Translations under genes and position numbers: made by a program | The notes under the pieces: generated by a model | The model's input: the letters and a program-made list of their open reading frames with translations, nothing else | Told to the model about the DNA's origin: nothing | The model's database searches: none | Origin: Candidatus Sericytochromatia bacterium | Lineage (GTDB): Bacteria; Cyanobacteriota; Sericytochromatia; S15B-MN24; VGJW01 | Length of the DNA: 64,000 bases | Reading direction: 5' to 3' | Assembly: GCA_035285865.1 (NCBI GenBank) | Contig: JAYKHS010000003.1 | Span: 64,001 to 128,000, forward strand | In this document: positions 44,455-61,591 of the stretch, piece after piece | Layout: each line of letters begins with the position of its first letter | Numbering within the stretch: position 1 is the stretch's first letter

Positions 44455-45507
44455 ATGGAGCAACGCTGCCACGTATGCCCTCGGCGCTGCGATCTGGCTC
44501 GGGCACCCGGATTCTGCGGCGGCTGGGCATGGGGCGCCGAAGGCCCCCGCAACCTCCTCGCCGGACGGGTGGCCAGTTGGTCCGTCGACACCATCGAGAA
44601 GAAGCCTGTCTGGTACTACCGCCCGGGAACGCGCGTCCTGTCTCTGGGCACGTGGGGCTGTACCCTGCGGTGTCGGCACTGCCTGAATGCAGACCTCGCC
44701 TGGGCACGCGGCGGGGCACGTACGGACCTGCCTGAACCGTGGACACCGGAAGCCGTCGTCAGGCTCGCGCGGGAGCAGGACTGCGCGGGTATCGCGTGGA
44801 CGACTACGGAAGCGGCCCCGTGGTGGCCCTTCGTCGTCGAGACCAGCAAGGCCATGCGCGCGGCCGGTGGCTACACCGTGCTCGTGACCAACGGCTTCTA
44901 CACGGCCGAAGCCCTGGCGGAACTGCTGCCGTGGCTGGACGTCTGGCGCGTGGATCTCAAGGCGTGGGACGAGCAGACCTATGGCGTGCTGATGGGCACG
45001 GACCCGGCGCTATCGCCCGCGGCGACTTGCCGGGCGCGCACGCTCGAAGCGCGTCGGGCGGGCGTGCATGTCGAAGTCGTGACTTGCCTGGTACCCGGGC
45101 ACCACGACGGCCCGGAAGCCCTGTTGCCCATTGCCCGCTGGATTCGCGAAGAATTGGGGACTGCGACGCCCTGGCACCTGCTGCGCTTCCATCCCCAGCA
45201 TCTGATGCGGAGTGCCCATGCGTTCGGTGCCGCCGAGGCGGAGGGTCTCGCCCGGACCGTGCGCGCGCAGGGCCTCGCCCACGTCCACACGGGCGGTGAT
45301 GCGACCCGCGGCAAGGGGGCCCTGCCGGCAGGCCTGCGCACCTATGACTGGCACGCGGACGACGGGCGATTCCTGCGCATCGTCCTGGAGGAGGACAGCG
45401 GCAAACTGGGATTCGTCGGCGACGAGGACCTGTTGGAAACGATTCTCGAGGCTTGTCGCGCCGAGGGCCTGGACCTCGGCATCGCCCGTTCGGCGCGGTG
45501 CGGCTGA
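44455..45507 (+). CDS. AmmeMemoRadiSam-type radical SAM enzyme (PFL-activase-like)
   Basis: CHVCPRRC...GFC, DTIEKKPVWYYRPG, GCTLRCRHCLN, VTNGF, VDLK and PWHLLRFHP. Confidence 0.88.
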   Translation: MEQRCHVCPRRCDLARAPGFCGGWAWGAEGPRNLLAGRVASWSVDTIEKKPVWYYRPGTRVLSLGTWGCTLRCRHCLNADLAWARGGARTDLPEPWTPEAVVRLAREQDCAGIAWTTTEAAPWWPFVVETSKAMRAAGGYTVLVTNGFYTAEALAELLPWLDVWRVDLKAWDEQTYGVLMGTDPALSPAATCRARTLEARRAGVHVEVVTCLVPGHHDGPEALLPIARWIREELGTATPWHLLRFHPQHLMRSAHAFGAAEAEGLARTVRAQGLAHVHTGGDATRGKGALPAGLRTYDWHADDGRFLRIVLEEDSGKLGFVGDEDLLETILEACRAEGLDLGIARSARCG

Positions 45508-45509
45508 CC

Positions 45510-46106
45510 CTAGCGGGTGGCGTACCGGGTGGGATCGCCGGCGAGCAGCACGGCGAGCAGGCCCAGCAACTGGATGTCGTGGGGCACGATGCTGGTCTGG
45601 ACGATGAAGCGGCCGTGGATGCCGGTCCTCCCTTCGATGACGTTGCCGAATCGCTCCAGATAGACCGTCCGCCCGTGGGCCGTGGCCTCGGCGCCCCACT
45701 TGCCGTCGAACTTGCCCGTGACGGGCACGCCCCGCGACTCGCCGCTGAGGGTCCAGTCGTTGTTCACGCGCAGGCGCACCGGATGGTTGCCCACCATCCC
45801 GCCGGCCTCGTCGTAGAAGGTCTCCTCGACGCGGAAGCGAGCCCGACCCCACTGGCCCTCCAGCAGGTCCTCGTAGCCGACGGCGCGCAAGAGCCAGGTG
45901 TCCACCTCTCCCGAGTAATAGTTGTTGAACTCGCGCTCGGGCGTGACGGCGGGGGCCAGCAAGCGGACTGGCCGGGCCAAGGAACCGGCCTGCGCGGAAA
46001 TCGCCATCGCGGGCGCCGTGCGGGCCACGGGAGCCGGGGCGCCACAACCCGCAAGCACGGCCGCACCTACGCACGCCACGGACAGAAATCGATTCATCAC
46101 GAGCAC
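45510..46106 (-). CDS. Hypothetical lipoprotein
   Basis: Lipobox LAGC; beta-rich body with coding-like codon usage. Confidence 0.7.
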   Translation of the reverse strand: MLVMNRFLSVACVGAAVLAGCGAPAPVARTAPAMAISAQAGSLARPVRLLAPAVTPEREFNNYYSGEVDTWLLRAVGYEDLLEGQWGRARFRVEETFYDEAGGMVGNHPVRLRVNNDWTLSGESRGVPVTGKFDGKWGAEATAHGRTVYLERFGNVIEGRTGIHGRFIVQTSIVPHDIQLLGLLAVLLAGDPTRYATR

Positions 46107-46160
46107 ACTCCAGTAGTAAACAAAATGCTAAGCATTATTTAAATTATAGCAAAATCCGGC
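46107..46160. promoter_or_regulatory. AT-rich divergent promoter region
   Basis: GTAAACAAAATGCTAAGCATTATTTAAATTATAGCAAAA between two divergent lipoprotein genes. Confidence 0.5.
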
Positions 46161-46213
46161 CTCGACAGGCCCCTGCGGACAAGCGGTGCCCAAGCAGCCG
46201 GCACAACACCTGC

Positions 46214-47137
46214 ATGCGGCATATGTCCAGCCGATGGCCTCAGCCGTTCCTGCTCACGGGACTGGTCCTTGGCTGGCTGCTGGCGGCCTGCGGCACGACC
46301 GGCCCGGCTGCGCTTCGAAACGTCGCGTCCGGTGTTGCGGGAGCCACCGCGCAGGACGGGCACCATCCCCGAGACGTCGAGATACGGGCAGAACTCACTG
46401 CCGAAGGCCATGCGCTGCTCGCCGCGGGCACCGGCTGGAGCACGCCACGCACCCGAACGGATCTGTACTTCGATGCCTTCGATGGCCAGAGCTGGGCATG
46501 GAAGGGGGGGCGCACGGCCTGGAAGCTGCGCGTCAAGCGCAAGGCCAGGACCAGCGAGATGCAACTGCGTCGTCCGCTGAGCCGGGAAGGTGCGCCCGTA
46601 TCGGCCTTGCCGCTCGTCATGAACGTCGCCGAATCGTGGGATGCGACGCTGTTCGAAAGCCAGGTCATGGCCCTCTGGGACCCGGGACTCGCGCTGCTGG
46701 GCACCATCCAGCAGGGCAGCCTGCCGACCCGCAAGGCCATGACCGAGTTGGACAAGGCGTGGCAGATGCAACTGTGGGCAGGTGCCGATGCCTTGGTCGG
46801 AGCCCGCAAGGCCCAGCCGGGTCTGCTCCTGCCGACCCACCGTGCAGACAGGAACATGATCGAGCGCAAGATGACCTTCGGTGCGGGCTGGAAGGCCGAG
46901 GTCGTCCTCGGGACCAGCCGGACGCTGGACGGCGCTGGCGAAGCGACCGTCCGGCACGAAATCGAGGTGACGCCGGGCAAGGACGCTCCGGAAGCGGCGA
47001 TTGCCATGCAGGACGTCTCCGATTGGCTCGCTGCCTCGGGTCTGAGCATCCGCCACATTGCTCCGTCGCCTGCGGATCCGACCGCGGCGGCAGCCCGGGC
47101 CTATGCGCGGGTCGGCACTCCCCGAAATATGCGCTGA
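46214..47137 (+). CDS. Lipoprotein with CYTH-like domain
   Basis: Lipobox LAAC; DVEIRAE, RTDLYFD, KLRVK and HEIEV follow the CYTH motif order. Confidence 0.55.
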   Translation: MRHMSSRWPQPFLLTGLVLGWLLAACGTTGPAALRNVASGVAGATAQDGHHPRDVEIRAELTAEGHALLAAGTGWSTPRTRTDLYFDAFDGQSWAWKGGRTAWKLRVKRKARTSEMQLRRPLSREGAPVSALPLVMNVAESWDATLFESQVMALWDPGLALLGTIQQGSLPTRKAMTELDKAWQMQLWAGADALVGARKAQPGLLLPTHRADRNMIERKMTFGAGWKAEVVLGTSRTLDGAGEATVRHEIEVTPGKDAPEAAIAMQDVSDWLAASGLSIRHIAPSPADPTAAAARAYARVGTPRNMR

Positions 47138-47212
47138 GTCGACTCGAGCAAGCGTGAGCCGTGCCCGCATGGCGGGCATGTAAGCTGTCTCACCTGAACC
47201 AGCCACGAGCCG

Positions 47213-50120: not shown

Positions 50121-50675
50121 ATGATCGCTTTTGCCCCGTCCCTGCGGCACCATCCCGTCCGCAACGTCCGCAGCACCCTGCCAGCCGATGCTGCGACCAC
50201 CCCGGCGCGGCCGCAGCATCGGCCGCAAGCCCGGCAACGAGTGCAGGCTGCCCCACCCTCGGCCCGGCGTCTCGCGGATTTCGAGGATCTGGCCCAGATG
50301 CTGGTTTCCGGAGTTGGTGGCCCGCTCCTTGCCGGGACCGGTGCGCTGGTGGGCTTCTTCCTCGGCGGGCCGGCGCTTGCCCTGACGCTCGCCATGGCGG
50401 GTGGCGCCCTGCCCGCCGTGCTCTTCGGGGGCTACGACGTCGTGGTCGGGACCGGGGACATCCTGGCGGGACGCGAAGGCGGCAAGCGGCAACTGTTGTT
50501 CGGCCTCGGCTTGCTTGCCGCAGGGCCCGGAGTCGTCTGGGCGGGTGCAGCAGTGGGGGGCCTGGCGGGAACCGTCACGGCGGCCACGCTTGGCGCGATG
50601 TTGGCCCCGGGATTGCTGCTGGCAGGCATCTGGCTTGCTGCGGAGATCGGGCGACGCCGCCATCGGCAGGAATGA
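50121..50675 (+). CDS. Gly/Ala-rich hypothetical membrane protein
   Basis: Four hydrophobic Gly-rich segments; true start uncertain. Confidence 0.55.
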   Translation: MIAFAPSLRHHPVRNVRSTLPADAATTPARPQHRPQARQRVQAAPPSARRLADFEDLAQMLVSGVGGPLLAGTGALVGFFLGGPALALTLAMAGGALPAVLFGGYDVVVGTGDILAGREGGKRQLLFGLGLLAAGPGVVWAGAAVGGLAGTVTAATLGAMLAPGLLLAGIWLAAEIGRRRHRQE

Positions 50676-52035: not shown

Positions 52036-53907
52036 ATGTCCGAGTCCAACGCTCCGCCCCCCGGTGCGACAGCCCCGCTGCCGCCGTGGTTCCAGGCCCT
52101 GAGCGACCACTACAGGGCCAAGGCCGCCCACCAGTTCCTGCTGCACTTCAACATCCAGGACCACGTGTTGGTCGAGGGTCGCATCACGACTGTCCGGGAC
52201 CTGCTGGTGCAACGCCTTGCGGATCGCTTCCTGATCGTCACCTACAGCCTGTCCCGCGGCATCGGCTTTCCCGCGACGGGGCAGGCTCAGGCCGAGAGCC
52301 TCGGGCGTGAGCCCGGCCTTGGGCGTCTGCTGGGCTTTCGCGAGTCAGCCGAGGGCAACGTGCCGGTGGACCCCACGCGAGACGACCGGGACTTCCATCG
52401 GCTCCAGGGGCAAGGACGGATCAGCCCGTTGCAGCCTCCGGACGAGGCTCTGCCAGCCATCGAAAGGGCCTTGCGCCAAGGGGGCAGGCGTCTGTGCGTG
52501 CTGCTGGAGCACGTGGACAAACTGGCGCCTGCAGATGCCCGCGGTCGCGACCAGTGGATCGCCGTGGAAACACTGCAACGCTGGGCCCTCGACGGAGAGC
52601 TTGCCGAGCATGGCCATCTCGTCGTCATGCTGGCCGCGGAGCATGGCCAGGTGGCCGCTGCCGTGCAGGGGGCCAACAGCGGCACGGTGTCCCTGCAAAT
52701 CCCGCTGCCCGATGCGGCAGCACGCCGGATCTATCTCGACCATGTGCTCGCGGATTCCCATTTCGCCCGCCTGGCGTGGCAACCGGACTTCACGCCCGCG
52801 GACCTGGCCGGGCACACCGTGGGTTTCTCCCTGCGCGACATCCTGAACACCTTGAGGTTGGCGGCCGCGACGGGCAGGGCGATCGGCCAGGACCTGGTCG
52901 CCGAGCGCAAGCGGGACATCATCCGTCTGGAGAGCCACGGGCTGCTGCAGATCGTCGAAACACGTCATGGGCTCGACGCCATCGGCGGGCTGGAACACGT
53001 CAAGGCCTATCTGGGCGAAAAGATCGGCAACATCCGGAGCTACCTCGACCTGAACGCCCGGCACGAGCACACGGACGCCTCTCGCGACGCCCTCGCGCGA
53101 GCGCTGGCCTTGGTGCCCCGGGGCATCCTGCTCGCCGGTCCTCCCGGGACGGGCAAGACCATCCTCGCGGAAGCCTTGGCCCACGGCACCCAGCTGAACA
53201 TGGTCAAGCTGCAGGACATCCGCAGCATGTGGGTGGGCGAGAGCGAGCGGAATCTGACGAAGGTTCTGGATCTCCTCGTGGCCCTCGCCCCGGTGCTGGT
53301 GTTCGTCGACGAAATCGACCAGGCCCTTGGCAGCCGTGGAGGGCCTACGGCGGGCGCCGGGGGGGATACCGACAAACGGATCTTCGGCAAGCTGCTGGAG
53401 TTCATGGGAGACAACCGGCACCGCGGCCGTGTACTGTGGGTCGCGGCCACGAACCGGCCCGACTTTCTCGATGCCGCGATGCTCCGACGGTTCGATCGCG
53501 TCGTCCCGATCCTCGCCCCCGACCGGGAGGAACGGACGGCGGTGCTCGCCACCCTTGCCGGCCGTATCGGAACCCGGTACGGCACCGACGTGGACCTGGG
53601 CGCCATCGCGGAACGAACCGCAGGCCTGACGGGTGCCGGCCTAGAGGTCATCGTGCGGCGGGCCGCGGAGCTCGCTACCGACAACGTCATCACCCAGCAC
53701 GGGCTCATCACGGCATTGGCAGACCACAAACCCAACCACGACCCCGCTGTCTACGTGGAGCAGGCCATGCGCGCCCTCGTCGCGGCCAACTTCTTCTCGA
53801 TGCTACCCAGACATCTGCCGCCCGATCTCGCGGAGTTGGTCGAGGCCTGCCGGCAGGAGCGCAGCAACGCCCCGCTCGAACGGGCCTTGGCCCGCCTGAT
53901 GCCTTGA
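52036..53907 (+). CDS. Classical-clade AAA+ ATPase (Cdc48/Vps4/Ycf46-like) with a degenerate N-terminal AAA-like module
   Basis: GPPGTGKT, pore loop MWVGESE, VFVDEID and ATNRPDFLDAAMLRRFDR; the N-terminal module lacks a Walker A. Confidence 0.92.
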   Translation: MSESNAPPPGATAPLPPWFQALSDHYRAKAAHQFLLHFNIQDHVLVEGRITTVRDLLVQRLADRFLIVTYSLSRGIGFPATGQAQAESLGREPGLGRLLGFRESAEGNVPVDPTRDDRDFHRLQGQGRISPLQPPDEALPAIERALRQGGRRLCVLLEHVDKLAPADARGRDQWIAVETLQRWALDGELAEHGHLVVMLAAEHGQVAAAVQGANSGTVSLQIPLPDAAARRIYLDHVLADSHFARLAWQPDFTPADLAGHTVGFSLRDILNTLRLAAATGRAIGQDLVAERKRDIIRLESHGLLQIVETRHGLDAIGGLEHVKAYLGEKIGNIRSYLDLNARHEHTDASRDALARALALVPRGILLAGPPGTGKTILAEALAHGTQLNMVKLQDIRSMWVGESERNLTKVLDLLVALAPVLVFVDEIDQALGSRGGPTAGAGGDTDKRIFGKLLEFMGDNRHRGRVLWVAATNRPDFLDAAMLRRFDRVVPILAPDREERTAVLATLAGRIGTRYGTDVDLGAIAERTAGLTGAGLEVIVRRAAELATDNVITQHGLITALADHKPNHDPAVYVEQAMRALVAANFFSMLPRHLPPDLAELVEACRQERSNAPLERALARLMP

Positions 53908-56072
53908 GGATCGTGCAGCTGGCCCTCTGGGTGGGGGCAATCTGCATCGTCGGGTGGTACGTCGCTGCCGAATGTGCCGAATGGCTGGCCCTCTCCTCGG
54001 AACGGGCACGGGCCGCGCTTCAGGGCAGCCTCCTGGGGGCTGCGCTTGGTGGAGGTCTCGTGGTGCTCGAGGTCTTGCTGCTGGACCCGAGCCTCTTCCG
54101 GACACCTGCACGCTGGGGTGGAGAGGCCCTGCGCGGGGCTGTCGTCGGACTGGTCTTCGGGACGGTCGGATTGCTGGCGGCGGCGGCCGCCTATGCGGGG
54201 CTGGGGCATGCCCCATGGGCCAGAGGCCTCTCGTGGGGGGTGCTGGGTCTCGCCACGGGCCTGACCGAAGGCTTCAAGGCGGCTTCGGCACGGCGGGCCA
54301 GGGCAGCCGGGGTCGGTGCCGGTGTCGGCGGCCTGCTGGGCGGTTGGGTGGTCGAACAGGGCCCCGAGTGGGCCGGGCCGTTGTCGGCCAGCCCGGAAGG
54401 CGCCGTCCTGGTGATGACGATGGGCCTTGCCGCATTGGGAGTCTGCCTAGGGGCCGGCATGGGCCTGGCGCAGGTTCTCACCCGCCGGGCCCGGCTGATC
54501 GTCCTGACCTCCCCGCTCGGAAAGCAGCTGGGCCTCGCCTTCGACATCGGCAGTGTCGCGGCCATCGAGACGATAGGCAGCCTGAAGGCCACGTGGACGC
54601 TCACGGGCGACCCCGGCGTGCTGTCCAGGCATCTGTCCCTGGAGCGCCGGGGGGGAAGCCTTCTGGTGCGTCCGCTTGGCCAAGCACAGGTCGACCGTTC
54701 GGATCGCCCCATGCGGCCGGATGAACTCGGTCAGCTGGCGGATGTGGCGTTCCATCGATTGTCCCCTGAAGCGGCCGTCCACCTGCGGGACGGCGAGATC
54801 CTGCGCATCGGCGAGGGAACCCACCTGCACGTCAGTCTGGAACGTCTGCAGCGGACGAACGATGGCCCCCGTTCGCGGATTCCCGCTTTGGTGCTGATGA
54901 TTGCGGCAGCGTGGGCCATCATCCCTGCCGCGACCTCCGAGGCCCGAACGAATGGCAAGCCGGAGCTGGCCATCCGACTCCAGGATGCCCGCATCCTGCC
55001 GGCGCGAGACACCACGGGCCAGTGGCGCGCACGGGCGAACGTCCTCGTCTTGCGCGGGGATGACCCGGTCGAGGGACTCGGTGCCGAAGCCTTCAAGGCC
55101 TCGCTCGACGGCAAGGCCATCCCGATCGCCGCTGCCGGCACGGGGCATGAGTCGCGTCAACCCATCTGCGTGGCTCTCGTCCTTGACCGATCCGGGAGCA
55201 TGCTGGCGAAGGCGCGTCCCCACGGCCCGGCCAGCCGCATGCAAGTGGTGCGGGAAGCAGCCTTGGCTTTCGTCAGACTCCTGGATCCGCGAGACCAGGT
55301 CATGATCGTTTCCTTCGACCGGAACGTGGACGTCCAGGCCCCGACCAGCGATCGGGATCGCCTCGAGCGCGCCATAGCCCAGATCGAACCGGACCGCTGG
55401 GGTGCCGGGACCACGAACCTGCGCGGCGCCGTCGAACGGGCCCTGAACGAGCTGGCCCGGCACCGCGGCCCGGATGCCGGACTCAGGCTGGCCCTCGTCG
55501 CCCTGACGGATGGCGCGCACAACGTGCCCGGCGCACCTTCGCCGGATAGTCTTGTCCGCTCGGCCCGCTCCATCGGCTGCCCGATCCACGCCATCGCCTA
55601 CGGACGCACGGACGCCCCGCGGGGCAGTCGGGACTGGGTCGACGTGCCCGGATTGAAGCAACTCGCCGGGGAGGGGGGCGGCATCTTCCAGATGGCTCCG
55701 GACGTGGCCGCGCTGAATGACGCCTGGGGGCGCATCCTGCGTGCCATCCGCGGCAGCTACGGCCTCGAGCTTGCCCTGGGGCGACGCGTCCCCGACCCCT
55801 ACACCCACGTCCTGGAGGTGCGGCTCGCCGGCACCACCGCTCGCGCAAGCGGCCACGTCAGCGGCGGCATGGTCCCCTCACTTCCGGGAACAGCAGGCAT
55901 GCGCCTCGCCATCTGGCTGCCGATGGCCCTGCTGCTCGCGCTGGGCGGTCTTGCCGTGCCACCGGGGTGGCGTCGCCTGGAACGCCTGCTTGCCCCCACG
56001 GAGCACCCGCCGCCCATCCGGAGCGAGGCCTTGGCCCTCTGGGAAGCCCACAAGAAAAGGGGCGCGTCATGA
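53904..56072 (+). CDS. Multi-TM protein with FHA-like domain, vWA (MIDAS) domain and C-terminal TM
   Basis: TTG start overlapping the AAA stop; about six Gly-rich TMs; TIGS...GDPGVLSRHL...LRDGEILRIG (FHA-like); LVLDRSGSM, GTTNL and LTDG (vWA). Confidence 0.85.
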   Translation: MRIVQLALWVGAICIVGWYVAAECAEWLALSSERARAALQGSLLGAALGGGLVVLEVLLLDPSLFRTPARWGGEALRGAVVGLVFGTVGLLAAAAAYAGLGHAPWARGLSWGVLGLATGLTEGFKAASARRARAAGVGAGVGGLLGGWVVEQGPEWAGPLSASPEGAVLVMTMGLAALGVCLGAGMGLAQVLTRRARLIVLTSPLGKQLGLAFDIGSVAAIETIGSLKATWTLTGDPGVLSRHLSLERRGGSLLVRPLGQAQVDRSDRPMRPDELGQLADVAFHRLSPEAAVHLRDGEILRIGEGTHLHVSLERLQRTNDGPRSRIPALVLMIAAAWAIIPAATSEARTNGKPELAIRLQDARILPARDTTGQWRARANVLVLRGDDPVEGLGAEAFKASLDGKAIPIAAAGTGHESRQPICVALVLDRSGSMLAKARPHGPASRMQVVREAALAFVRLLDPRDQVMIVSFDRNVDVQAPTSDRDRLERAIAQIEPDRWGAGTTNLRGAVERALNELARHRGPDAGLRLALVALTDGAHNVPGAPSPDSLVRSARSIGCPIHAIAYGRTDAPRGSRDWVDVPGLKQLAGEGGGIFQMAPDVAALNDAWGRILRAIRGSYGLELALGRRVPDPYTHVLEVRLAGTTARASGHVSGGMVPSLPGTAGMRLAIWLPMALLLALGGLAVPPGWRRLERLLAPTEHPPPIRSEALALWEAHKKRGAS

Positions 56073-57226
56073 GTCGCATGGCACGCCTCGAGCAGATCCC
56101 GTGGTGGAACAGCGCGATGTTGGCAGAAGCCACCGTCCTGCTGGCCGGGGTCGGTGCCGTGGGCAACGAGGTGCTCAAGAATCTGGCCCTGATGGGCGTG
56201 GGGCGCGTGGTTCTGGTCGACAGGGACAAGGTCGCGCTGCATAACCTCTCGCGCAGTGTCCTCTTCCGACCGGAACACGTCGGCATGGCCAAGGCGAAGG
56301 CCGCTGCGGAGTCGGCGCTCGGACTGGCCCCCGAGGCCGTCTTCGTGCCCCTCGAGATGGACGTGGCAAAGGTTTCGCCAGCCCTGGCCGCATGGGTGGA
56401 CGTCGCGATCGGGGCCTTGGACAGCCTTGCGGCACAGGTGCGGCTTGGCCGACTGTGTCGGGTTGCCGGCATCCCTTGGGTCCAGGGGGGACTCGGCGAC
56501 GCCACGGACCTTTTCAAGGCCACGCTGGCCACGCATCCGGGCGAGGAGGGGCCTTGCCTCGAATGCCGGCTTCCCGAGGGCCTGGGAGACCGCCTGCTGG
56601 CCGAGGACCTGCCCCGCGGAGGGTGTGCCGAGGCCGGTCGAGAAGCCGAGGCAGCCGGTGGCGTCCCCTCGACGCCGATGACCGCCTCCATTCTGGGCGG
56701 GCTGCTGGCGCTCGAGGCCCTAGCCGTCCTTCACGCGCGCCGTGGTCTTCCCGGTCCGGACAGCCCCCCGGCGTGGGGCACCCACGCCCATTGGAATCTC
56801 CGCGTGCCCTCGGTCCACGCTCTTCGGGGCACGACGGTCCGACCCGAATGCCCGTGGCACGAACCCGTGCGCGTCCACAGGCTGGACCGCCAGATGGCCA
56901 ACCTGCCGATTGCCCACCTCTGGGACGTGCTTGGGCCATCAGGCATGGCCGGCCTCGAGGGTCACCTCGTCCGACACGCGGCCTGCCCAGGATGCAGGGC
57001 CAGCGCCGACTGGCGCTGGTGCCCCGACCTCCCTGCCCCGTGCCCTCACTGCGGTACCCCGGACCCGGCGGCCGAAAGTCTGCGTCATCTGCCGCGTGCA
57101 CACGCCCAATGCGCCCGTACGCCGCGCGCACTGGGAATCCCGCCGGGCATCGGCCTCCGCTGGTTCGATGGGGACGAGGCATGGACCGTGACGTGGCCCG
57201 GCGTCCTCGGGGACCTCAGCCCGTGA
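56069..57226 (+). CDS. E1-like ThiF/MoeB/UBA activating enzyme with C-terminal Zn ribbon
   Basis: GVGAVGNEVLKNL, VDRD, NLSR, KAKAA, ALDS, PCLEC, candidate catalytic Cys in GGCA, CPWH and CPGC...CPHC. Confidence 0.92.
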   Translation: MSRMARLEQIPWWNSAMLAEATVLLAGVGAVGNEVLKNLALMGVGRVVLVDRDKVALHNLSRSVLFRPEHVGMAKAKAAAESALGLAPEAVFVPLEMDVAKVSPALAAWVDVAIGALDSLAAQVRLGRLCRVAGIPWVQGGLGDATDLFKATLATHPGEEGPCLECRLPEGLGDRLLAEDLPRGGCAEAGREAEAAGGVPSTPMTASILGGLLALEALAVLHARRGLPGPDSPPAWGTHAHWNLRVPSVHALRGTTVRPECPWHEPVRVHRLDRQMANLPIAHLWDVLGPSGMAGLEGHLVRHAACPGCRASADWRWCPDLPAPCPHCGTPDPAAESLRHLPRAHAQCARTPRALGIPPGIGLRWFDGDEAWTVTWPGVLGDLSP

Positions 57227-57858
57227 GCCCCTTGGCACGGACCATCCTGGCGAGCCTCGTGCCCGTTGCCGCCACGCTGGCTGCCATCCGCAGCCTGCCC
57301 GGCGTCCTCGTGTTGGCGCCGGCCGGCACCATGCTGTCCGTGCTGGCCGCGGCCATCGCCTGGCGGACGAGGCGGCCGAATATCGCTGCCTGGGCCACGG
57401 GCAAGGCCGCCGGGTTCCTCGCTGGCATCGGTCTGCTTGCCTCAGGTGCCGTGGTGCTGGCGACCCGAGGCGATTGGCGGCAGGGTGCCCTCGCAACCCT
57501 GGCCTGGGCGGCAGGCCTCGCCGCGGCGACGTGGCGGGGAGCCGTGGTCCGCGAAACACCCGGAAGACACTTGTTCCGCCTGATCCGGGAAAAGCGCCGC
57601 AGCCCGACTGGTTCGTGTCCGGTGCCGAATTGCCCGGAGCCGCCACTGTCCTGCGACAGGAACGGCTGTGCCCGCGTGCTGTGCGGCACGCACTGGATCA
57701 TGGCCGAGGCCAGATGCGCCGAGTGCGGGCACGACGGCCTTCTGGCCCGACCGAACGCGGGCCGCCGTCACCCCGCTTGGACGGCAGCCCCACTAATTCT
57801 GGCACTGGCCGGAGGCATCGCACTGTTGATGACGTCGTCGCTGCTCCGGGGAACATGA
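57223..57858 (+). CDS. Multi-TM protein with RING-like binuclear Zn finger (candidate E3 ligase)
   Basis: GTG start overlapping the E1 stop; four TMs, then CPVPNC-x6-CDRNGC-x4-CGTHW-x6-CAEC, then a C-terminal TM. Confidence 0.7.
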   Translation: MSPLARTILASLVPVAATLAAIRSLPGVLVLAPAGTMLSVLAAAIAWRTRRPNIAAWATGKAAGFLAGIGLLASGAVVLATRGDWRQGALATLAWAAGLAAATWRGAVVRETPGRHLFRLIREKRRSPTGSCPVPNCPEPPLSCDRNGCARVLCGTHWIMAEARCAECGHDGLLARPNAGRRHPAWTAAPLILALAGGIALLMTSSLLRGT

Positions 57859-57864
57859 AACGAC

Positions 57865-58137
57865 ATGCCGCAGTACGTGATCGAGATTCTGGACCAGGAC
57901 CTGAAGGACAGGGCCCGTGGTGCCAAGGCCTATGACGTCGCGACGGGCACCACGGTTGCCGCCCTGAAGGCGGCGCTCGTCGACCAGTGGGGCCTGCCCC
58001 GCCGGGACATGCGGGGAGAGGTCCGACCCTACATGATGGCGTGGAACGGCGAGTTGCTGGACGATGGCGACGTGCTCGACGTCCGGATTCCGGACGGGGC
58101 GACGCTCGCGATGGCCAGTCCGGGGACCGTGGCGTGA
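57865..58137 (+). CDS. Ubiquitin-like beta-grasp protein (YukD/EsaB-like)
   Basis: 90 aa; TTVAALKAAL helix and NGELLDDGDVL...IPDGATLAM match the ubiquitin GxxLxDxxxL...IxxGxTL pattern; ends SPGTVA. Confidence 0.8.
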   Translation: MPQYVIEILDQDLKDRARGAKAYDVATGTTVAALKAALVDQWGLPRRDMRGEVRPYMMAWNGELLDDGDVLDVRIPDGATLAMASPGTVA

Positions 58138-58766
58138 CGGCGTGGCTGGCCGAGCACCTGACGCGCCAGTGGGATGGCCTGCAAGCCCTGATCACGCGGC
58201 TCGGGGCGGCATCGCTGATCGAAGCCGAACCGACCGCCTGGCTGGACCCCGTGGGCCGCAAGGCACCCGTGCGCATCGACCTCGCCTTGCGAACGGTCGC
58301 CATCGTGGACATGGAGGTACGCGGTCGGTCTCTGGTCCGGGAGTTCGGCGGGGACGCCGAAGGCTTCGTTCGCGTCACGGATCCGGCCCCACTGGACTGG
58401 GAGCCGGTTTTCGCCGAACCGCTCGAGAACAGCTCCCACGGCCCTATCCGGGTCCGCCTCTTCCTTCCGGATGACCTGAACCGGCCCGCAAGCCCCGAGG
58501 TGTATTTCCTCGACCGGGTCTGGCATCCGAACATCCGATGGGACAACGGACTTGCCTGCTACGGTGACAAGCAGGCCTGGGCCCAGCCGGACCGATCGCT
58601 GGCCGATCTGGTCCGACGCCTGTTCCTGATGACGGCCTTTGCAGACGCCGGTGCGGTGAACATGGACGAGGCGCATGCCCTGAACAAGCAGGCCCTGCGC
58701 TGGTACCGCGACACGCTGGCGGAGATGCCCGAACTCTTCCCGCTGTCCCGCAGGATTCCCGCTTGA
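58134..58766 (+). CDS. E2/UBC ubiquitin-conjugating-like enzyme
   Basis: GTG start overlapping the Ubl stop; IRVRLFLP...PEVYFLDRVWHPNIRWDNGLAC (Cys codon at 58557), W...SLADLV and ALNKQA. Confidence 0.88.
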   Translation: MTAWLAEHLTRQWDGLQALITRLGAASLIEAEPTAWLDPVGRKAPVRIDLALRTVAIVDMEVRGRSLVREFGGDAEGFVRVTDPAPLDWEPVFAEPLENSSHGPIRVRLFLPDDLNRPASPEVYFLDRVWHPNIRWDNGLACYGDKQAWAQPDRSLADLVRRLFLMTAFADAGAVNMDEAHALNKQALRWYRDTLAEMPELFPLSRRIPA

Positions 58767-59413
58767 AGGCAGCACGCTGCTGGCCCGGTCTGCCTGACGG
58801 GGCCCCGCGGGTGCTGGTCGAGGAGGCGTTCCTCGAACGGTTGGCGCGCTTCGGAGAGCGCTCGGCAATGGCCGGCCGGGAGGCCGGAGCCTTTATCCTG
58901 GGCAAGGCCGAAAAGCTTCGTGATGGCTGGCAGATCGCCCTTGAAGAACTGCAGGAGATCGAAGGAGAGGCCGACGCCGAGTCCTTCACCTTTCCTGCCG
59001 AGGCGTTCCTGAAGGCCCACCAGAGATGGCGAACCTGGTCCGTGGACGAGATCGCGGCCCGTCCCGGCACGACGTGCGTCGTCGGCTGGTGCCACACCCA
59101 TCCCGGACACGGCGTGTTCCTGTCGCCGCCGGATCTCGAGGTGCAGCATCGCAAGTTTCCCTTGCCCTTCCAGATTGCTCTGGTGGTCGATCCCCTTGCC
59201 GAATCAGCCGACCGGCGGATGGGCCTGGTGGCGTGGGTGAGAGAGGGCACGCTCTCGCCCCACCTGCCGGACGGCATCGCGTACTTCCCCACCGCCGCTC
59301 CCAGGCAAGCCGATCAGAAACGGCCCTTTGCGGTCGCCGGACAGCACTGGAACTGGGGCATCCTGCCCCTGCTGGCGGCCGCAGGCTGGTGGCTCTGGCA
59401 CCATGGCTTCTGA
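58763..59413 (+). CDS. JAB/MPN+ (JAMM) metallo-isopeptidase with C-terminal TM anchor
   Basis: TTG start overlapping the E2 stop; REAGAFILG, VVGWCHTHPGHGVFLSPPD and ALVVDP; ends WGILPLLAAAGWWLWHHGF. Confidence 0.92.
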   Translation: MKAARCWPGLPDGAPRVLVEEAFLERLARFGERSAMAGREAGAFILGKAEKLRDGWQIALEELQEIEGEADAESFTFPAEAFLKAHQRWRTWSVDEIAARPGTTCVVGWCHTHPGHGVFLSPPDLEVQHRKFPLPFQIALVVDPLAESADRRMGLVAWVREGTLSPHLPDGIAYFPTAAPRQADQKRPFAVAGQHWNWGILPLLAAAGWWLWHHGF

Positions 59414-59428
59414 CTCGGAGGCAGAAAC

Positions 59429-59734
59429 GTGAACGGCGAGCCAGAAGGGCCCATCATCCGCTCCATACGGGACCTGGCCTCAGGGAAGTGGGTCAAGCCC
59501 CCGAGTCCCGAAGGCCCGGTGCCCGGACCTGCATCGGCAGCGACCGGACGCCCGGACCTCGAGGAACGCTTGCTGCACGCGGAGCGTCTGGTCGCCGATT
59601 ATCAAGAGGCGCTTGTCTCGGCTCATGAACAAGTGCGTGCCCTGCAGGACCAGGTCGCCCTCCTCGAGGATCGGATCCGTACCTTGAATCTCGAACAGGG
59701 CATCCGGCCCGGTGGCGAACGGGAGGCCCTGTGA
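59429..59734 (+). CDS. Small coiled-coil protein
   Basis: GGAGG RBS then GTG; heptad-rich LEERLLHAERLVADYQEAL...LQDQVALLEDRI. Confidence 0.7.
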   Translation: MNGEPEGPIIRSIRDLASGKWVKPPSPEGPVPGPASAATGRPDLEERLLHAERLVADYQEALVSAHEQVRALQDQVALLEDRIRTLNLEQGIRPGGEREAL

Positions 59735-60654
59735 GCGCGGAAGGCGATCTCGTCATCAATGCCCTGGTCGTTCCGGTCGGCGTGACAGGGCTTGCCGTCG
59801 GCACGGCCGCCCTCAAGGGCGGGGCATTGCTGGCTGCGACGGCCTGTGATGCAGCAGCGATCGCGGGACACGGTCTTTGGCAGGCTACCGACACAGCCGG
59901 TCGGCTCGGGGCCTGGGCCGTTCGAACGGGGGCCGAATGGGTCCAGAGCATGCAGGATGCGTGGCAAGCCGAGGTGGCGCGCCAGGAGAAGGCCCACGAA
60001 GCTCGATTCGCAGACCGGGATGCCCTTCGCACGCAGGCGATCCGGACCATGGCGCATCTGGCCCAGATCGAGCGTGCCAGGCAAGTTGCTGGATCTACGG
60101 GCGTCGCGGCCGATGCCGAACTGGCGGCGTGGGCCACGGCCGGTCGCCACTGCCTGGGCCTGCTGGAGCAGAACACGACCGCCGCCCTTCCGGCCGTCTC
60201 GCAGTGGCTCGAACAGATGGAGCAGGTTCGTCGTGAAGGCCTGCGCACCCTGGAGAGCATCCAGCAGACCCATGTCGGTGATCTGCTTGTCGAAGCCCTC
60301 GAGGCCTCGGGCTACACCGTCGTGCGAGACGAGCCCTTCGGCACGGACAGACGACTCTCGGCGATGCGCCCAGAGCCGCCTCGGAGGGTGGTCTGGCGCT
60401 TGTCGCCCGGTGGACGGCTCGCCTTCGACGTGACGGATGGCTACGCCGGACAGGACTGCCACGATCTGCTTGCCGACGTACTCGACCACATGCGGCGGCG
60501 CGGCGTGCGCTTCACGCTCGGCCCCGAACTGGATGCGGTCGACCGCATCCTCAGAAGGGTCGGAACGGCCTTCGAGGCCTCGGGGGGGCGATTCCGCACA
60601 GAGCACCTGGGTGTAGGTCCCGATCACGAAGAGCCCGGACGACAGCGGGAGTAA
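59731..60654 (+). CDS. Hypothetical protein: hydrophobic N-terminus, coiled coil and DUF2997-like C-terminal motif
   Basis: GTGA overlap with the upstream gene; Gly/Ala-rich N-terminus; helical middle; EALEASGYTV and FDVTDGYAGQDCHD. Confidence 0.65.
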   Translation: MSAEGDLVINALVVPVGVTGLAVGTAALKGGALLAATACDAAAIAGHGLWQATDTAGRLGAWAVRTGAEWVQSMQDAWQAEVARQEKAHEARFADRDALRTQAIRTMAHLAQIERARQVAGSTGVAADAELAAWATAGRHCLGLLEQNTTAALPAVSQWLEQMEQVRREGLRTLESIQQTHVGDLLVEALEASGYTVVRDEPFGTDRRLSAMRPEPPRRVVWRLSPGGRLAFDVTDGYAGQDCHDLLADVLDHMRRRGVRFTLGPELDAVDRILRRVGTAFEASGGRFRTEHLGVGPDHEEPGRQRE

Positions 60655-60751
60655 CGGCCGACCCCACCGAAAGTCTTTCCGAAAGCCACGCTTCGCTTCA
60701 TCATGCCAAGCACCCCGCTACGTTCCTGCACAACCCTGGAGGAGTGCCGAC

Positions 60752-61591
60752 ATGAGCCAGCGCCAAGCGTCAGGTCCGGTCTTCCTCCGGGACAGGGGCG
60801 ACCGGGTGCTGGCCGTGGTCCTGCTGGCCATCGTGGGTCTGTTTGTCCTGCTGGTGATATGGGGCATCCCCCAGGTCGGTCATCAGGTCACGAAGTGGGT
60901 GCCACCGGCGTGGGAACGAAAGCTGGGCGACTCGGCCCTGAAGTCCGTCGTGGTCGGCAAAGCCGAAACCGGTGGGGTCCGGGTCGGGATGGTGGAGGCG
61001 ATCGTCAAACGCCTCACACCCGATGAAGCGACCTGGTCATTCCGTGTCACGCTTGCCCCGGGTGACACCCGAGTCAATGCGATGGCCCTGCCAGGCGGAG
61101 CCATCGTCGTCACCCAGGGACTGCTCGAGCGATGCTCCACTCCGGAGGAATTGGCCGGAGTCCTCGCACACGAGATCGTCCACGTCCAGCGCCGTCACGG
61201 CCTGCAACGGATGGGGCAAGAACTGGGCATCCAGTTGCTGCTGCTCGTGCTGACCGGCGGCGATCCCTCGGACCTTTGGTCTGGTGCCGCAGGTCTCGCC
61301 GGCCTGCACCACAGCCGACAGGCCGAGGACGAGGCCGACAAGGAAGGGCTGGCTCTGATGCTTAAGGCCCGTATCGATCCACAAGGCATGGTGCGGTCGT
61401 TCCGGATGCTCCAGAAGCTTTCGGCGGAGTCTGAAGCCACCGCTTTGCCTGCATTCCTGAGCGATCATCCGGCCGTCGCCGACCGGCTCGCCCGCATCGA
61501 GGCCGAGGCCGCCCGGCATGCCGGTCCGTGGGAACCGATCACCCTGGATCGGCCTTGGCTCAACGTCAGGTTCCCGGCAAGCCGCCGCTGA
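60752..61591 (+). CDS. M48 family Zn metallopeptidase, membrane anchored
   Basis: N-terminal TM; NAMALPGG, ELAGVLAHEIVH, SRQAEDEAD and FLSDHP. Confidence 0.93.
   Translation: MSQRQASGPVFLRDRGDRVLAVVLLAIVGLFVLLVIWGIPQVGHQVTKWVPPAWERKLGDSALKSVVVGKAETGGVRVGMVEAIVKRLTPDEATWSFRVTLAPGDTRVNAMALPGGAIVVTQGLLERCSTPEELAGVLAHEIVHVQRRHGLQRMGQELGIQLLLLVLTGGDPSDLWSGAAGLAGLHHSRQAEDEADKEGLALMLKARIDPQGMVRSFRMLQKLSAESEATALPAFLSDHPAVADRLARIEAEAARHAGPWEPITLDRPWLNVRFPASRR

Follow-up and report, generated by a model that had tools for sequence, protein, structure and literature searches.

Can a bacterium with a small genome possess a complete, membrane-bound machine for conjugating a ubiquitin-like protein (Ubl), equipped with an unfoldase of its own? 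The question is raised by a run of nine genes in a stretch of 64,000 nucleotides from Candidatus Sericytochromatia bacterium (assembly GCA_035285865.1, contig JAYKHS010000003.1, positions 64,001 to 128,000), which as a whole is referred to here as the window. The genes encode, in this order, an AAA ATPase (P0001), a membrane protein with FHA and vWA domains (P0002), an E1 activating enzyme (P0003), a membrane-anchored zinc-domain protein that is a probable E3 ligase (P0004), a Ubl (P0005), an E2 conjugating enzyme (P0006), a JAB/JAMM metallopeptidase (P0007), a small coiled-coil protein (P0008) and a system-specific membrane protein (P0009). The gene set, the motifs, the homologies and the synteny of this locus are observed directly, and its interpretation as a membrane-bound Ubl conjugation machine with its own unfoldase is, as a joint claim, given a probability of about 0.55.

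The host genome is 2.8 Mb in size and 82.7% complete. Direct reading of the window reproduced exactly the layout described in the original prediction, that is nine co-directional open reading frames (ORFs) on the + strand spanning 52036-60654, joined by six 4-bp NTGA start/stop overlaps (53904, 56069, 57223, 58134, 58763 and 59731) and by two non-overlapping junctions of 6 nt 5' of the Ubl gene and 15 nt 5' of the coiled-coil gene. Consensus scans found zero promoter-like sites within the run of nine genes. Terminator-like matches numbered two, one in the AAA gene on the opposite strand and one in the downstream M48 protease gene, which is below the 4.3 expected from shuffled sequences. The run is a real operon with translational coupling. 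It is also far beyond chance, since the gene order recurs in five other genomes and three metagenome contigs; this synteny ruled out chance ORFs, and the same genomes and contigs bear out the expectation that the AAA, vWA and transmembrane (TM) genes co-occur with E1, E2 and JAB elsewhere.

The E2 is present in six of the 47 genomes of the class, belonging to three of its 27 genera, and in six of 61 sampled relatives. The gene order is kept in all three other genomes of the genus, one locus (L007) ending with its contig inside the ninth gene. Two genomes from other families (G013 and G014) keep the AAA, P0002, E1, P0004, Ubl, E2, JAB, the coiled-coil protein and a relative of P0009, and in G014 the AAA gene is detached from the conjugation genes and lies on the opposite strand. 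The same system was found in three of seven metagenome loci. In all six E2-bearing genomes the AAA, coiled-coil, P0009 and radical SAM genes accompany the conjugation genes, and the catalytic motifs of the system are invariant over three families.

The conjugation enzymes are the most clearly recognisable part of the system. The E1 (56069..57226, 385 residues; Pfam ThiF 1.2e-34) comprises a ThiF-type adenylation domain and a C-terminal domain and has four Cys/His zinc pairs, and its best relatives of solved structure are UBA7, SAE2 and UBA1 (2e-18 to 1e-16), ahead of MoeB and ThiF. C186 and the four Cys/His pairs are invariant in all nine aligned E1s, those of Chloroflexota included, which makes C186 the candidate catalytic cysteine. 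The E2 (58134..58766, 210 residues) carries WHPNIRWDNGLAC, comprising the HPN motif and C142, and has an N-terminal extension; H131-P132-N133 (in WHPN) and C142 are invariant in the alignment. Pfam recorded it at 0.065 only and word-based protein searches yielded just three E2 relatives; a six-sequence profile matched solved UBC enzymes, with PEX4 as the best (4.1e-8) and many UbcH5 entries, and hhalign aligned it with the Chloroflexota E2 (Prob 96.3, E 1.5e-9). By these comparisons both enzymes are nearer to eukaryotic conjugating enzymes than to MoeB/ThiF.

The Ubl (57865..58137, 90 residues) is YukD-like, as judged by hhalign, which matched it with a YukD-type Ubl fused to the E2 in Chloroflexota and recognised as YukD by Pfam (Prob 87.4, E 3.7e-6). 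Pfam itself offered only ThiS at 0.088, and the profile found nothing significant among PDB sequences. Its C-terminus is an invariant Val-Ala, not Gly-Gly. In G013 and G014 the Ubls (L010:8544-8828 and L011:9053-9337) have a 5-residue tail after Val-Ala, and in these tail-bearing lineages only, a second JAB gene is found immediately upstream of the Ubl gene. This pairing suggests that the second JAB may trim a tailed Ubl precursor. The JAB protein of the operon (58763..59413, 216 residues; Prok-JAB 9.4e-7) has a complete JAMM motif (E...HTHPGHGVFLSPPD) whose E, HxH, S and D recur in each of the seven JAB sequences compared, and it ends in a hydrophobic C-terminal tail; the orthologues in L010 and L011 possess a clear TM helix and an extra domain behind the JAB domain. 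Pfam, PDB profiles or hhalign thus support the identities first proposed for the E1, the Ubl, the E2 with its HPN motif and cysteine, the JAMM peptidase and the FHA and vWA domains.

An E1 and a beta-grasp protein may also serve a biosynthetic or sulfur-carrier pathway, in which the E1 would activate the beta-grasp protein for sulfur transfer, or for peptide modification together with a radical SAM enzyme, and no conjugation would take place. ThiF/MoeB models match this E1 too, the weak ThiS match of the Ubl would fit, and a radical SAM gene is a conserved neighbour of the system. We nevertheless regard this pathway as highly improbable. The operon has conserved both a JAB and an E2 with invariant HPN and Cys, and UBA7, SAE2 and UBA1 are closer to the E1 than MoeB is. 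The Ubl terminates in VA instead of GG, and the locus yielded neither a rhodanese domain nor ThiG, MoaE or any other sulfur acceptor.

A ligase is the next component that conjugation at a membrane would call upon, and P0004 (57223..57858, 211 residues) is a probable membrane-bound E3, as suggested by its ligands, its modelled fold and its place in the operon. Roughly four TM helices at the N-terminus and one at the C-terminus flank a zinc domain, C-x4-C-x6-C-x4-C-x4-C-x2-H-x7-C-x2-C, with eight invariant ligands whose spacing is unlike that of Prok-RING_1. A model of the full-length protein returned helical-bundle look-alikes only in Foldseek and VIA-align, and the zinc domain was therefore refolded alone, giving a pLDDT (predicted local distance difference test) of about 80-87. 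In a wide VIA-align search this model reached Z of at least 2 with 26 of 48,161 chains, nearly all of them RING/U-box, with the RING-H2 of Deltex as top match (Z 4.5). At least 13 of the 26 matched chains have RING, RNF or U-box in their title, and most of the remaining ones we take to be E3 ligases or complexes with one (NleG, HOIL-1, FANCL and Ltn1). Low as these Z scores are, the set of matches is strikingly specific. Leads from the ESM Atlas pointed to clusters with Prok-RING families in 13% or 33% of their members; their scores, 0.84 and 0.76, fell short of the 0.9 bar. A complex predicted from the E2, the zinc domain and two Zn scored 0.01, which gives no answer either way. P0004 occupies the operon slot held by the TM Prok-RING_1 gene in Chloroflexota. 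Of the earlier description as a TM zinc-finger, RING-like E3, the TM helices, the eight ligands and the RING/U-box matches of the model stand; sequence homology to Prok-RING families was not detected.

The link of the ligase to the outside of the cell would be made by P0002 (53904..56072, 722 residues), a polytopic protein with the layout TM-FHA-TM-vWA-TM and a putative sensor or adaptor. It consists of an N-terminal multi-TM module, a divergent FHA domain (about 195-320), a TM helix, a vWA domain (423-603), another TM helix and a short basic tail. The vWA domain is recognised by Pfam (VWA_2, PF13519, 8.5e-15) and its metal-ion-dependent adhesion site (MIDAS) is invariant (D428, S430, S432, T504 and D536). 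The FHA domain went undetected by Pfam; residues 1-309 align by hhalign with Chloroflexota TM-FHA proteins that are Pfam-positive for FHA at 4.1e-13 (Prob 99.1, E 1.6e-18, 267 columns). Hydropathy and charge would place the FHA domain and the basic tail in the cytoplasm and the vWA domain outside, between two TM helices. Membrane association had been predicted for three components of the system, and the association holds with a count of at least four, namely P0002, P0004, P0009 and the tail of the JAB protein.

The ATPase P0001 (52036..53907, 623 residues) is a two-domain classical AAA protein in which Pfam recognises one AAA domain and its lid (PF00004 4.2e-30 and AAA_lid_3 1.7e-9). Its active domain (D2, residues 360-560) has the Walker A GPPGTGKT, the pore loop MWVGESE, the Walker B DEID and Arg fingers. 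Walker A, G401, S403 and E404 of the pore loop, D425/E426, the sensor-1 residue N473 and R484/R485 vary little or not at all among 14 relatives. The scores against CDC48, PAN and FtsH models are roughly equal. Residues 1-340 have neither a P-loop nor a Walker B; a lid-like segment at 218-277 aligns with the D2 lid (hhalign E 3.2e-4, Prob 39), and by tblastn residues 142/143-544 align with D1-D2 of two-AAA proteins that bear CDC48_N and come from gas-vesicle loci. These alignments argue, with moderate strength, for a degenerate first domain (D1) that has retained its lid, followed by the active D2. A Cdc48/Vps4-class ATPase had been predicted: the pore-loop AAA is upheld, and Vps4-class identity was ruled out by the two AAA domains and the absence of MIT. 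Pfam detected neither CDC48_N nor a ubiquitin-binding adaptor domain in P0001, and a PDB sequence search with its N-domain gave nothing significant.

Word-based protein searches found 14 relatives of the P0001 N-domain and placed Ktedonobacteraceae proteins among the AAA relatives. A generic Walker A/B scan of genome contigs gave 80 ordinary AAA loci, none of which had a second component of the system (tblastn 1e-4), and the E2 was absent from five genomes behind such loci. The nearest AAA relative in the genome collection is encoded by a metagenome-assembled genome of Gemmatimonadota (L012:1942-11995, 33% identity over P0001 143-540), in a same-strand array with four family-less proteins, a HEAT/coiled-coil protein and a small NrdG-like radical SAM activase; this array may be a 'simple' FtsH-type system in the sense of Kaur et al. 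The two-AAA ATPases with CDC48_N lie within gas-vesicle clusters containing GvpL/F, GvpG and a GvpN-like AAA_5 (L022:251-6030 and L044:2915-11172), both of which were retrieved through generic AAA patterns only.

The function of the ATPase could be tied to the vWA protein rather than to the Ubl. It may be a MoxR-like chaperone by which the vWA/FHA complex is assembled, primed or taken apart. Ubl conjugation would then be a switch or an output in its own right, within a conflict system under threshold control as in the model of Kaur et al. Controlled assembly and disassembly is what passages of Kaur et al. 2020 (PMC7159879) propose for the FtsH-type ATPase of vWA systems, the AAA gene here directly precedes and overlaps the vWA gene, and in G014 it is detached from the conjugation genes on the opposite strand. 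The locus has no MoxR, whose part the AAA could take. Against this, the Chloroflexota TM-FHA/vWA pair occurs without any AAA, and the pore loop of P0001 is of the substrate-threading type. We consider the chaperone function a serious rival, on balance unlikely, and prefer the conjugation machine with its own unfoldase.

If the conjugation machine is accepted, the steps would run as follows; what we infer is the ligase function of P0004, the membrane topology, the sequence of events, the target and the biological role. The E1 would adenylate the C-terminal Ala of the YukD-like 90-residue Ubl and load this protein onto Cys186, from where it would be transferred to Cys142 of the HPN-type E2. The cytoplasmic zinc domain of P0004, with its predicted RING-like fold, would hold the charged E2 at the membrane and direct transfer to a membrane-proximal target. 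P0002 could couple this ligase to the cell exterior, its vWA domain with the intact MIDAS facing outward and its FHA domain, on the cytoplasmic side, recruiting or gating the ligase. The membrane-tethered JAB would strip the Ubl, and in relatives with the 5-residue Ubl tail the second JAB would trim the precursor. The two-domain AAA, with a putatively dead D1, an active D2 and a Cdc48-like pore loop, may then thread or pull apart either a tagged protein or an assembled complex.

The biological role of such a machine may be sought in housekeeping or in an accessory function. The patchy distribution of the system favours an accessory function in stress or conflict over housekeeping. The housekeeping alternative is a quality control resembling endoplasmic-reticulum-associated degradation (ERAD), in which misfolded or surplus membrane or envelope proteins would be tagged and extracted by the AAA for degradation, and the JAB would recycle the tag. 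Eukaryotic ERAD (Hrd1/Doa10, Ubc6/7, Cdc48) employs a polytopic RING E3, an E2, a tag, a pore-loop AAA and a JAMM-type deubiquitinase, and the parts of the locus match in its polytopic E3-like protein, HPN E2, Cdc48-like pore loop and tethered JAB. In the genus a membrane M48 protease follows the operon, and the locus lies among housekeeping genes (phosphoenolpyruvate (PEP) carboxylase, TerC and an aminotransferase). Presence in only six of 47 genomes of the class is, however, ill-fitting for core quality control, the M48 gene is not conserved with the system, and P0001 is devoid of CDC48_N or a ubiquitin-binding adaptor. Proteasome/HslV was found in none of five system-bearing genomes, and an outward vWA domain with MIDAS suggests ligand sensing and not substrate surveillance. 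Like a defence role, housekeeping quality control of this kind is put forward by analogy, and it is quite unlikely. Similarly improbable is a bacterial ERAD/Cdc48-type extraction triggered through the vWA domain, in which the RING-like ligase would tag membrane or envelope proteins with the Ala-ending Ubl and the AAA would read the tag and extract them with no proteasome or HslV involved.

Several results weigh against the conjugation machine or parts of it. None of six P0004 orthologues matched a Pfam family even at E<=10, comparison of P0004 with three Prok-RING_1 (PF14446) proteins gave an hhalign Prob of 2.8, and its RING-like fold comes from a predicted model with Z of 4.5 at most. The evidence for a dead D1 in P0001 is moderate only (Prob 39), and the FHA domain of P0002 is without the canonical Gly-Arg, so that its phospho-dependence is doubtful. 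A Ubl ending in Ala, not Gly, is unusual for E1 activation. The five genomes from which the Proteasome/HslV family is absent include four that are at least 94% complete, and the control was positive in 10 of 14 genomes; because of this absence P0001 is not a proteasome activator. Nor was a target, effector or partner protease identified for the system, and in the literature searched an experimental study of a bacterial TM-RING operon was not found. Speaking against the accessory stress or conflict role in particular are a G+C content that is even over locus and flanks, and flanks free of defence genes and mobile-element marks.

The two last genes of the operon encode conserved accessories, as does a radical SAM gene nearby, to judge from their retention with the system. 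P0008 (59429..59734, 101 residues) matches a SlyX-like coiled coil at 9.9e-7, slightly under the cut-off, and coiled-coil proteins of 173-179 residues occupy its slot in L010 and L011. P0009 (59731..60654, 307 residues) has a Gly/Ala-rich hydrophobic N-terminus, a helical middle and a conserved C-terminal alpha/beta domain; it had zero Pfam, NCBIfam or PADLOC matches, and is kept in all six system-bearing genomes. Its profile found, among 1.84 billion representatives, 24 proteins at E<=1e-3 and five clusters at E<=1e-30, and the ten clusters that were looked up had 1-5 members each.

The radical SAM gene (44455..45507, + strand; Pfam Radical_SAM 1e-10, TIGR04337 6.6e-46 with 157 bits) sits 6.5 kb upstream of the operon, at a distance of 6.4-6.5 kb in all four genomes of the genus. 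Orthologues of 49-53% identity directly adjoin the system in L010, L011 and the metagenome locus L093. TIGR04337 is the best NCBIfam model for the proteins of the window, L010 and L011, at 157-178 bits and below the cut-off of 220. The enzyme is a conserved neighbour of the system and appears related to the AmmeMemoRadiSam family. Three + strand ORFs of 229, 323 and 184 residues are located between the radical SAM gene and the operon (45453-47157 and 50121-50675); they had zero Pfam or NCBIfam families, and the 184-residue ORF is conserved across the genus.

On the other side of the operon, the gene for an M48 zinc metalloprotease with an N-terminal TM helix (60752..61591, + strand; Peptidase_M48 9.3e-25) begins 97 nt past the ninth gene and has its own GGAGGAG upstream. 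It follows the operon in L008, L009 and L092 and not in L010, L011 and L093. The M48 protease had been tied to the operon in the original prediction; this connection was lost, and as a member of the system the protease was ruled out, not being conserved outside the genus. The TerC, PEP carboxylase and helix-turn-helix (HTH) genes, like M48, adjoin the system within the genus only.

Bacterial relatives of ubiquitin in CBASS, Bil and Bub are now being shown to conjugate proteins, and for the most eukaryote-like class, with separate E1, HPN E2, RING-type E3 and JAB, no experimental bacterial study was found in the literature searched. The locus represents a compact, translationally coupled version of that class in a small genome, with its own pore-loop AAA and a predicted outward-facing sensor domain. 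It offers a test bed for three questions: can a Ubl tag be coupled to an unfoldase in organisms other than eukaryotes and archaea, are membrane RING-type ligases older than ERAD, and how does an E1 deal with a C-terminal alanine? If ERAD-like extraction were true, it would be the first prokaryotic example of a Ubl tag that an unfoldase reads at a membrane. The importance is limited in that the same combination of modules has already been predicted in print, and the role lies between defence, stress response and quality control.

How the locus relates to known systems is best seen first in Chloroflexota, where a distant E2 was found in three of 301 genomes. The loci are ordered GntR-E1, TM Prok-RING_1, YukD-Ubl-E2, JAB, TM-FHA and vWA, and are without AAA. 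By tblastn, P0003, P0007 and the vWA domain of P0002 share 26-52% identity with their counterparts, the E1s 30-32%. Comparison of the loci gives homologues in the Chloroflexota operon for six of the nine proteins (E1, E2, Ubl, JAB, and the TM-FHA module and vWA), with P0004 in the slot of the E3. Both types have a vWA domain flanked by two TMs and a polytopic zinc-finger protein between E1 and Ubl/E2. They differ in that TM-FHA and vWA, fused in P0002, are two genes in Chloroflexota, and in that the Ubl there is joined to the E2 in one protein and terminates in Gly-Gly, whereas here it is a free gene product ending in Val-Ala. The Chloroflexota E1 carries a GntR HTH, and its E3, unlike P0004, has Pfam Prok-RING_1 at the C-terminus. 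AAA, the coiled-coil protein and P0009 are missing from the Chloroflexota type, as is the radical SAM gene in two of three loci, the third (L103) having an unrelated radical SAM/SPASM gene. Two of the operons (L102:757-11925 and L104:5945-16589) lie in the same chromosomal slot, from the ribosomal L10-L7/L12 genes (rplJL) to lexA, which is a core position and not an island. This class of operon is attributed to Burroughs, Iyer and Aravind (Mol Biosyst, 2011).

The ATPase finds its closest published parallel in the FtsH-ternary systems. As described in passages of Kaur et al. (2020, eLife, PMC7159879), these contain MoxR, a divergent vWA protein and an ATPase whose FtsH-type domains are inactive at the N-terminal and active at the C-terminal position. 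They further comprise a complete E1/RING/Ubl-E2/JAB module, unique alpha-helical proteins, a small peptide accompanied by a zincin peptidase, and a radical SAM enzyme akin to the Memo/AMMECR1 type; the paper calls them rare in cyanobacteria. Likened by that description, the two-AAA design of P0001 appears to match the FtsH-ternary ATPase. To the extent that those passages go, both have in common a vWA protein, the ATPase with inactive-N and active-C AAA domains, separate genes for E1, RING-type E3 and JAB, system-specific helical proteins and a Memo/AMMECR1-like radical SAM enzyme, and both kinds are known computationally. By the same passages the FtsH-ternary zincin peptidase comes with a small precursor peptide; here an M48 zincin follows in the genus. 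MoxR belongs to those systems, whereas here PF07726 matches (in G000-G003, G013 and G014) are on other contigs or at least 10 kb off; and their vWA is fused to a beta-propeller or ClpN, in contrast to a membrane-embedded vWA fused to TM-FHA. Their Ubl is described as fused to E2 and EAD1, where Ubl and E2 are separate genes in the window, and their RING-type E3 contrasts with the P0004 zinc domain, in which no Prok-RING is recognisable. A caspase-like effector with EAD1 is also reported there; here the operon proteins had no peptidase_C14-like match in Pfam, no dedicated EAD1 profile search having been made.

An FtsH-ternary example of the published type was not found for direct comparison among the E2-bearing Myxococcota loci examined. 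Weak E2 matches occurred in eight of 351 Myxococcota genomes, and the five examined had no AAA, P0002, P0004 or P0009. The five loci (L113:1477-18980 and L114-L117) all contain a distant E1 and E2, and in three of them a JAB follows at a distance of about 8 kb, inside a 20-kb limit. In L113, the one locus scanned with Pfam, the E1/E2 module adjoins Baseplate_J and Tail_P2_I genes of a contractile-tail-like apparatus, and vWA is absent. A metagenome contig (L095:8190-17478) has an E1 (ThiF with a Zn ribbon), an E2-like gene, a 316-residue gene of no assigned function and a JAB, with immediately behind them a Mpa/ARC-type proteasomal AAA and two Pup-ligase family genes, an arrangement that agrees with the Ubl-plus-Pup coupling in passages of Kaur et al. 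2020 (PMC7159879).

As regards named defence systems, a possibility originally raised, PADLOC gave no whole-system match. Its Cap2 'E1-E2' models covered only the adenylation domain of P0003 (best 2.1e-18), which also matched BilD at 1.9e-6, P0007 had a weak BilC match (5e-4), and there was nothing for the E2, the Ubl, P0002, P0004 or P0009. Judging from passages of PMC11601596 and PMC11601603, the locus shares with Bil (types I/II), Bub and CBASS Cap2/Cap3 the E1, E2-type and JAB chemistry in a bacterial operon, and Bil and CBASS are proven to conjugate. Those systems are soluble and, unlike the locus, appear in these passages without RING, vWA, FHA or AAA components, BubE being the only component that they name with a membrane. 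The Caldiarchaeum subterraneum operon of E1, E2, small RING, Ub and Rpn11, reconstituted in vitro according to passages of PMC5654768 and PMC6043591, likewise combines a eukaryote-like tri-ligase cascade with a JAMM peptidase in a prokaryotic operon; it differs, as there described, in being archaeal and soluble, with a true ubiquitin ending in GG and no vWA, FHA, AAA or TM. The likeness to ERAD is one of logic only, homology being limited to the general E1, E2, JAB and AAA superfamilies, and here there is no CDC48_N in P0001 and no adaptor, retrotranslocon or proteasome.

The architecture is therefore less novel than first proposed, in view of the Chloroflexota TM-RING/TM-FHA/vWA operons and of the tri-ligase systems with vWA, a two-AAA ATPase and radical SAM that passages of Kaur et al. 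2020 (PMC7159879) describe. The Sericytochromatia system is a rare variant of an already-predicted kind, and its exact architecture may already be listed in published surveys. From its sequence relationships, it appears to merge two computationally predicted kinds of bacterial Ubl system, the FtsH-ternary tri-ligase kind and the membrane type of Chloroflexota.

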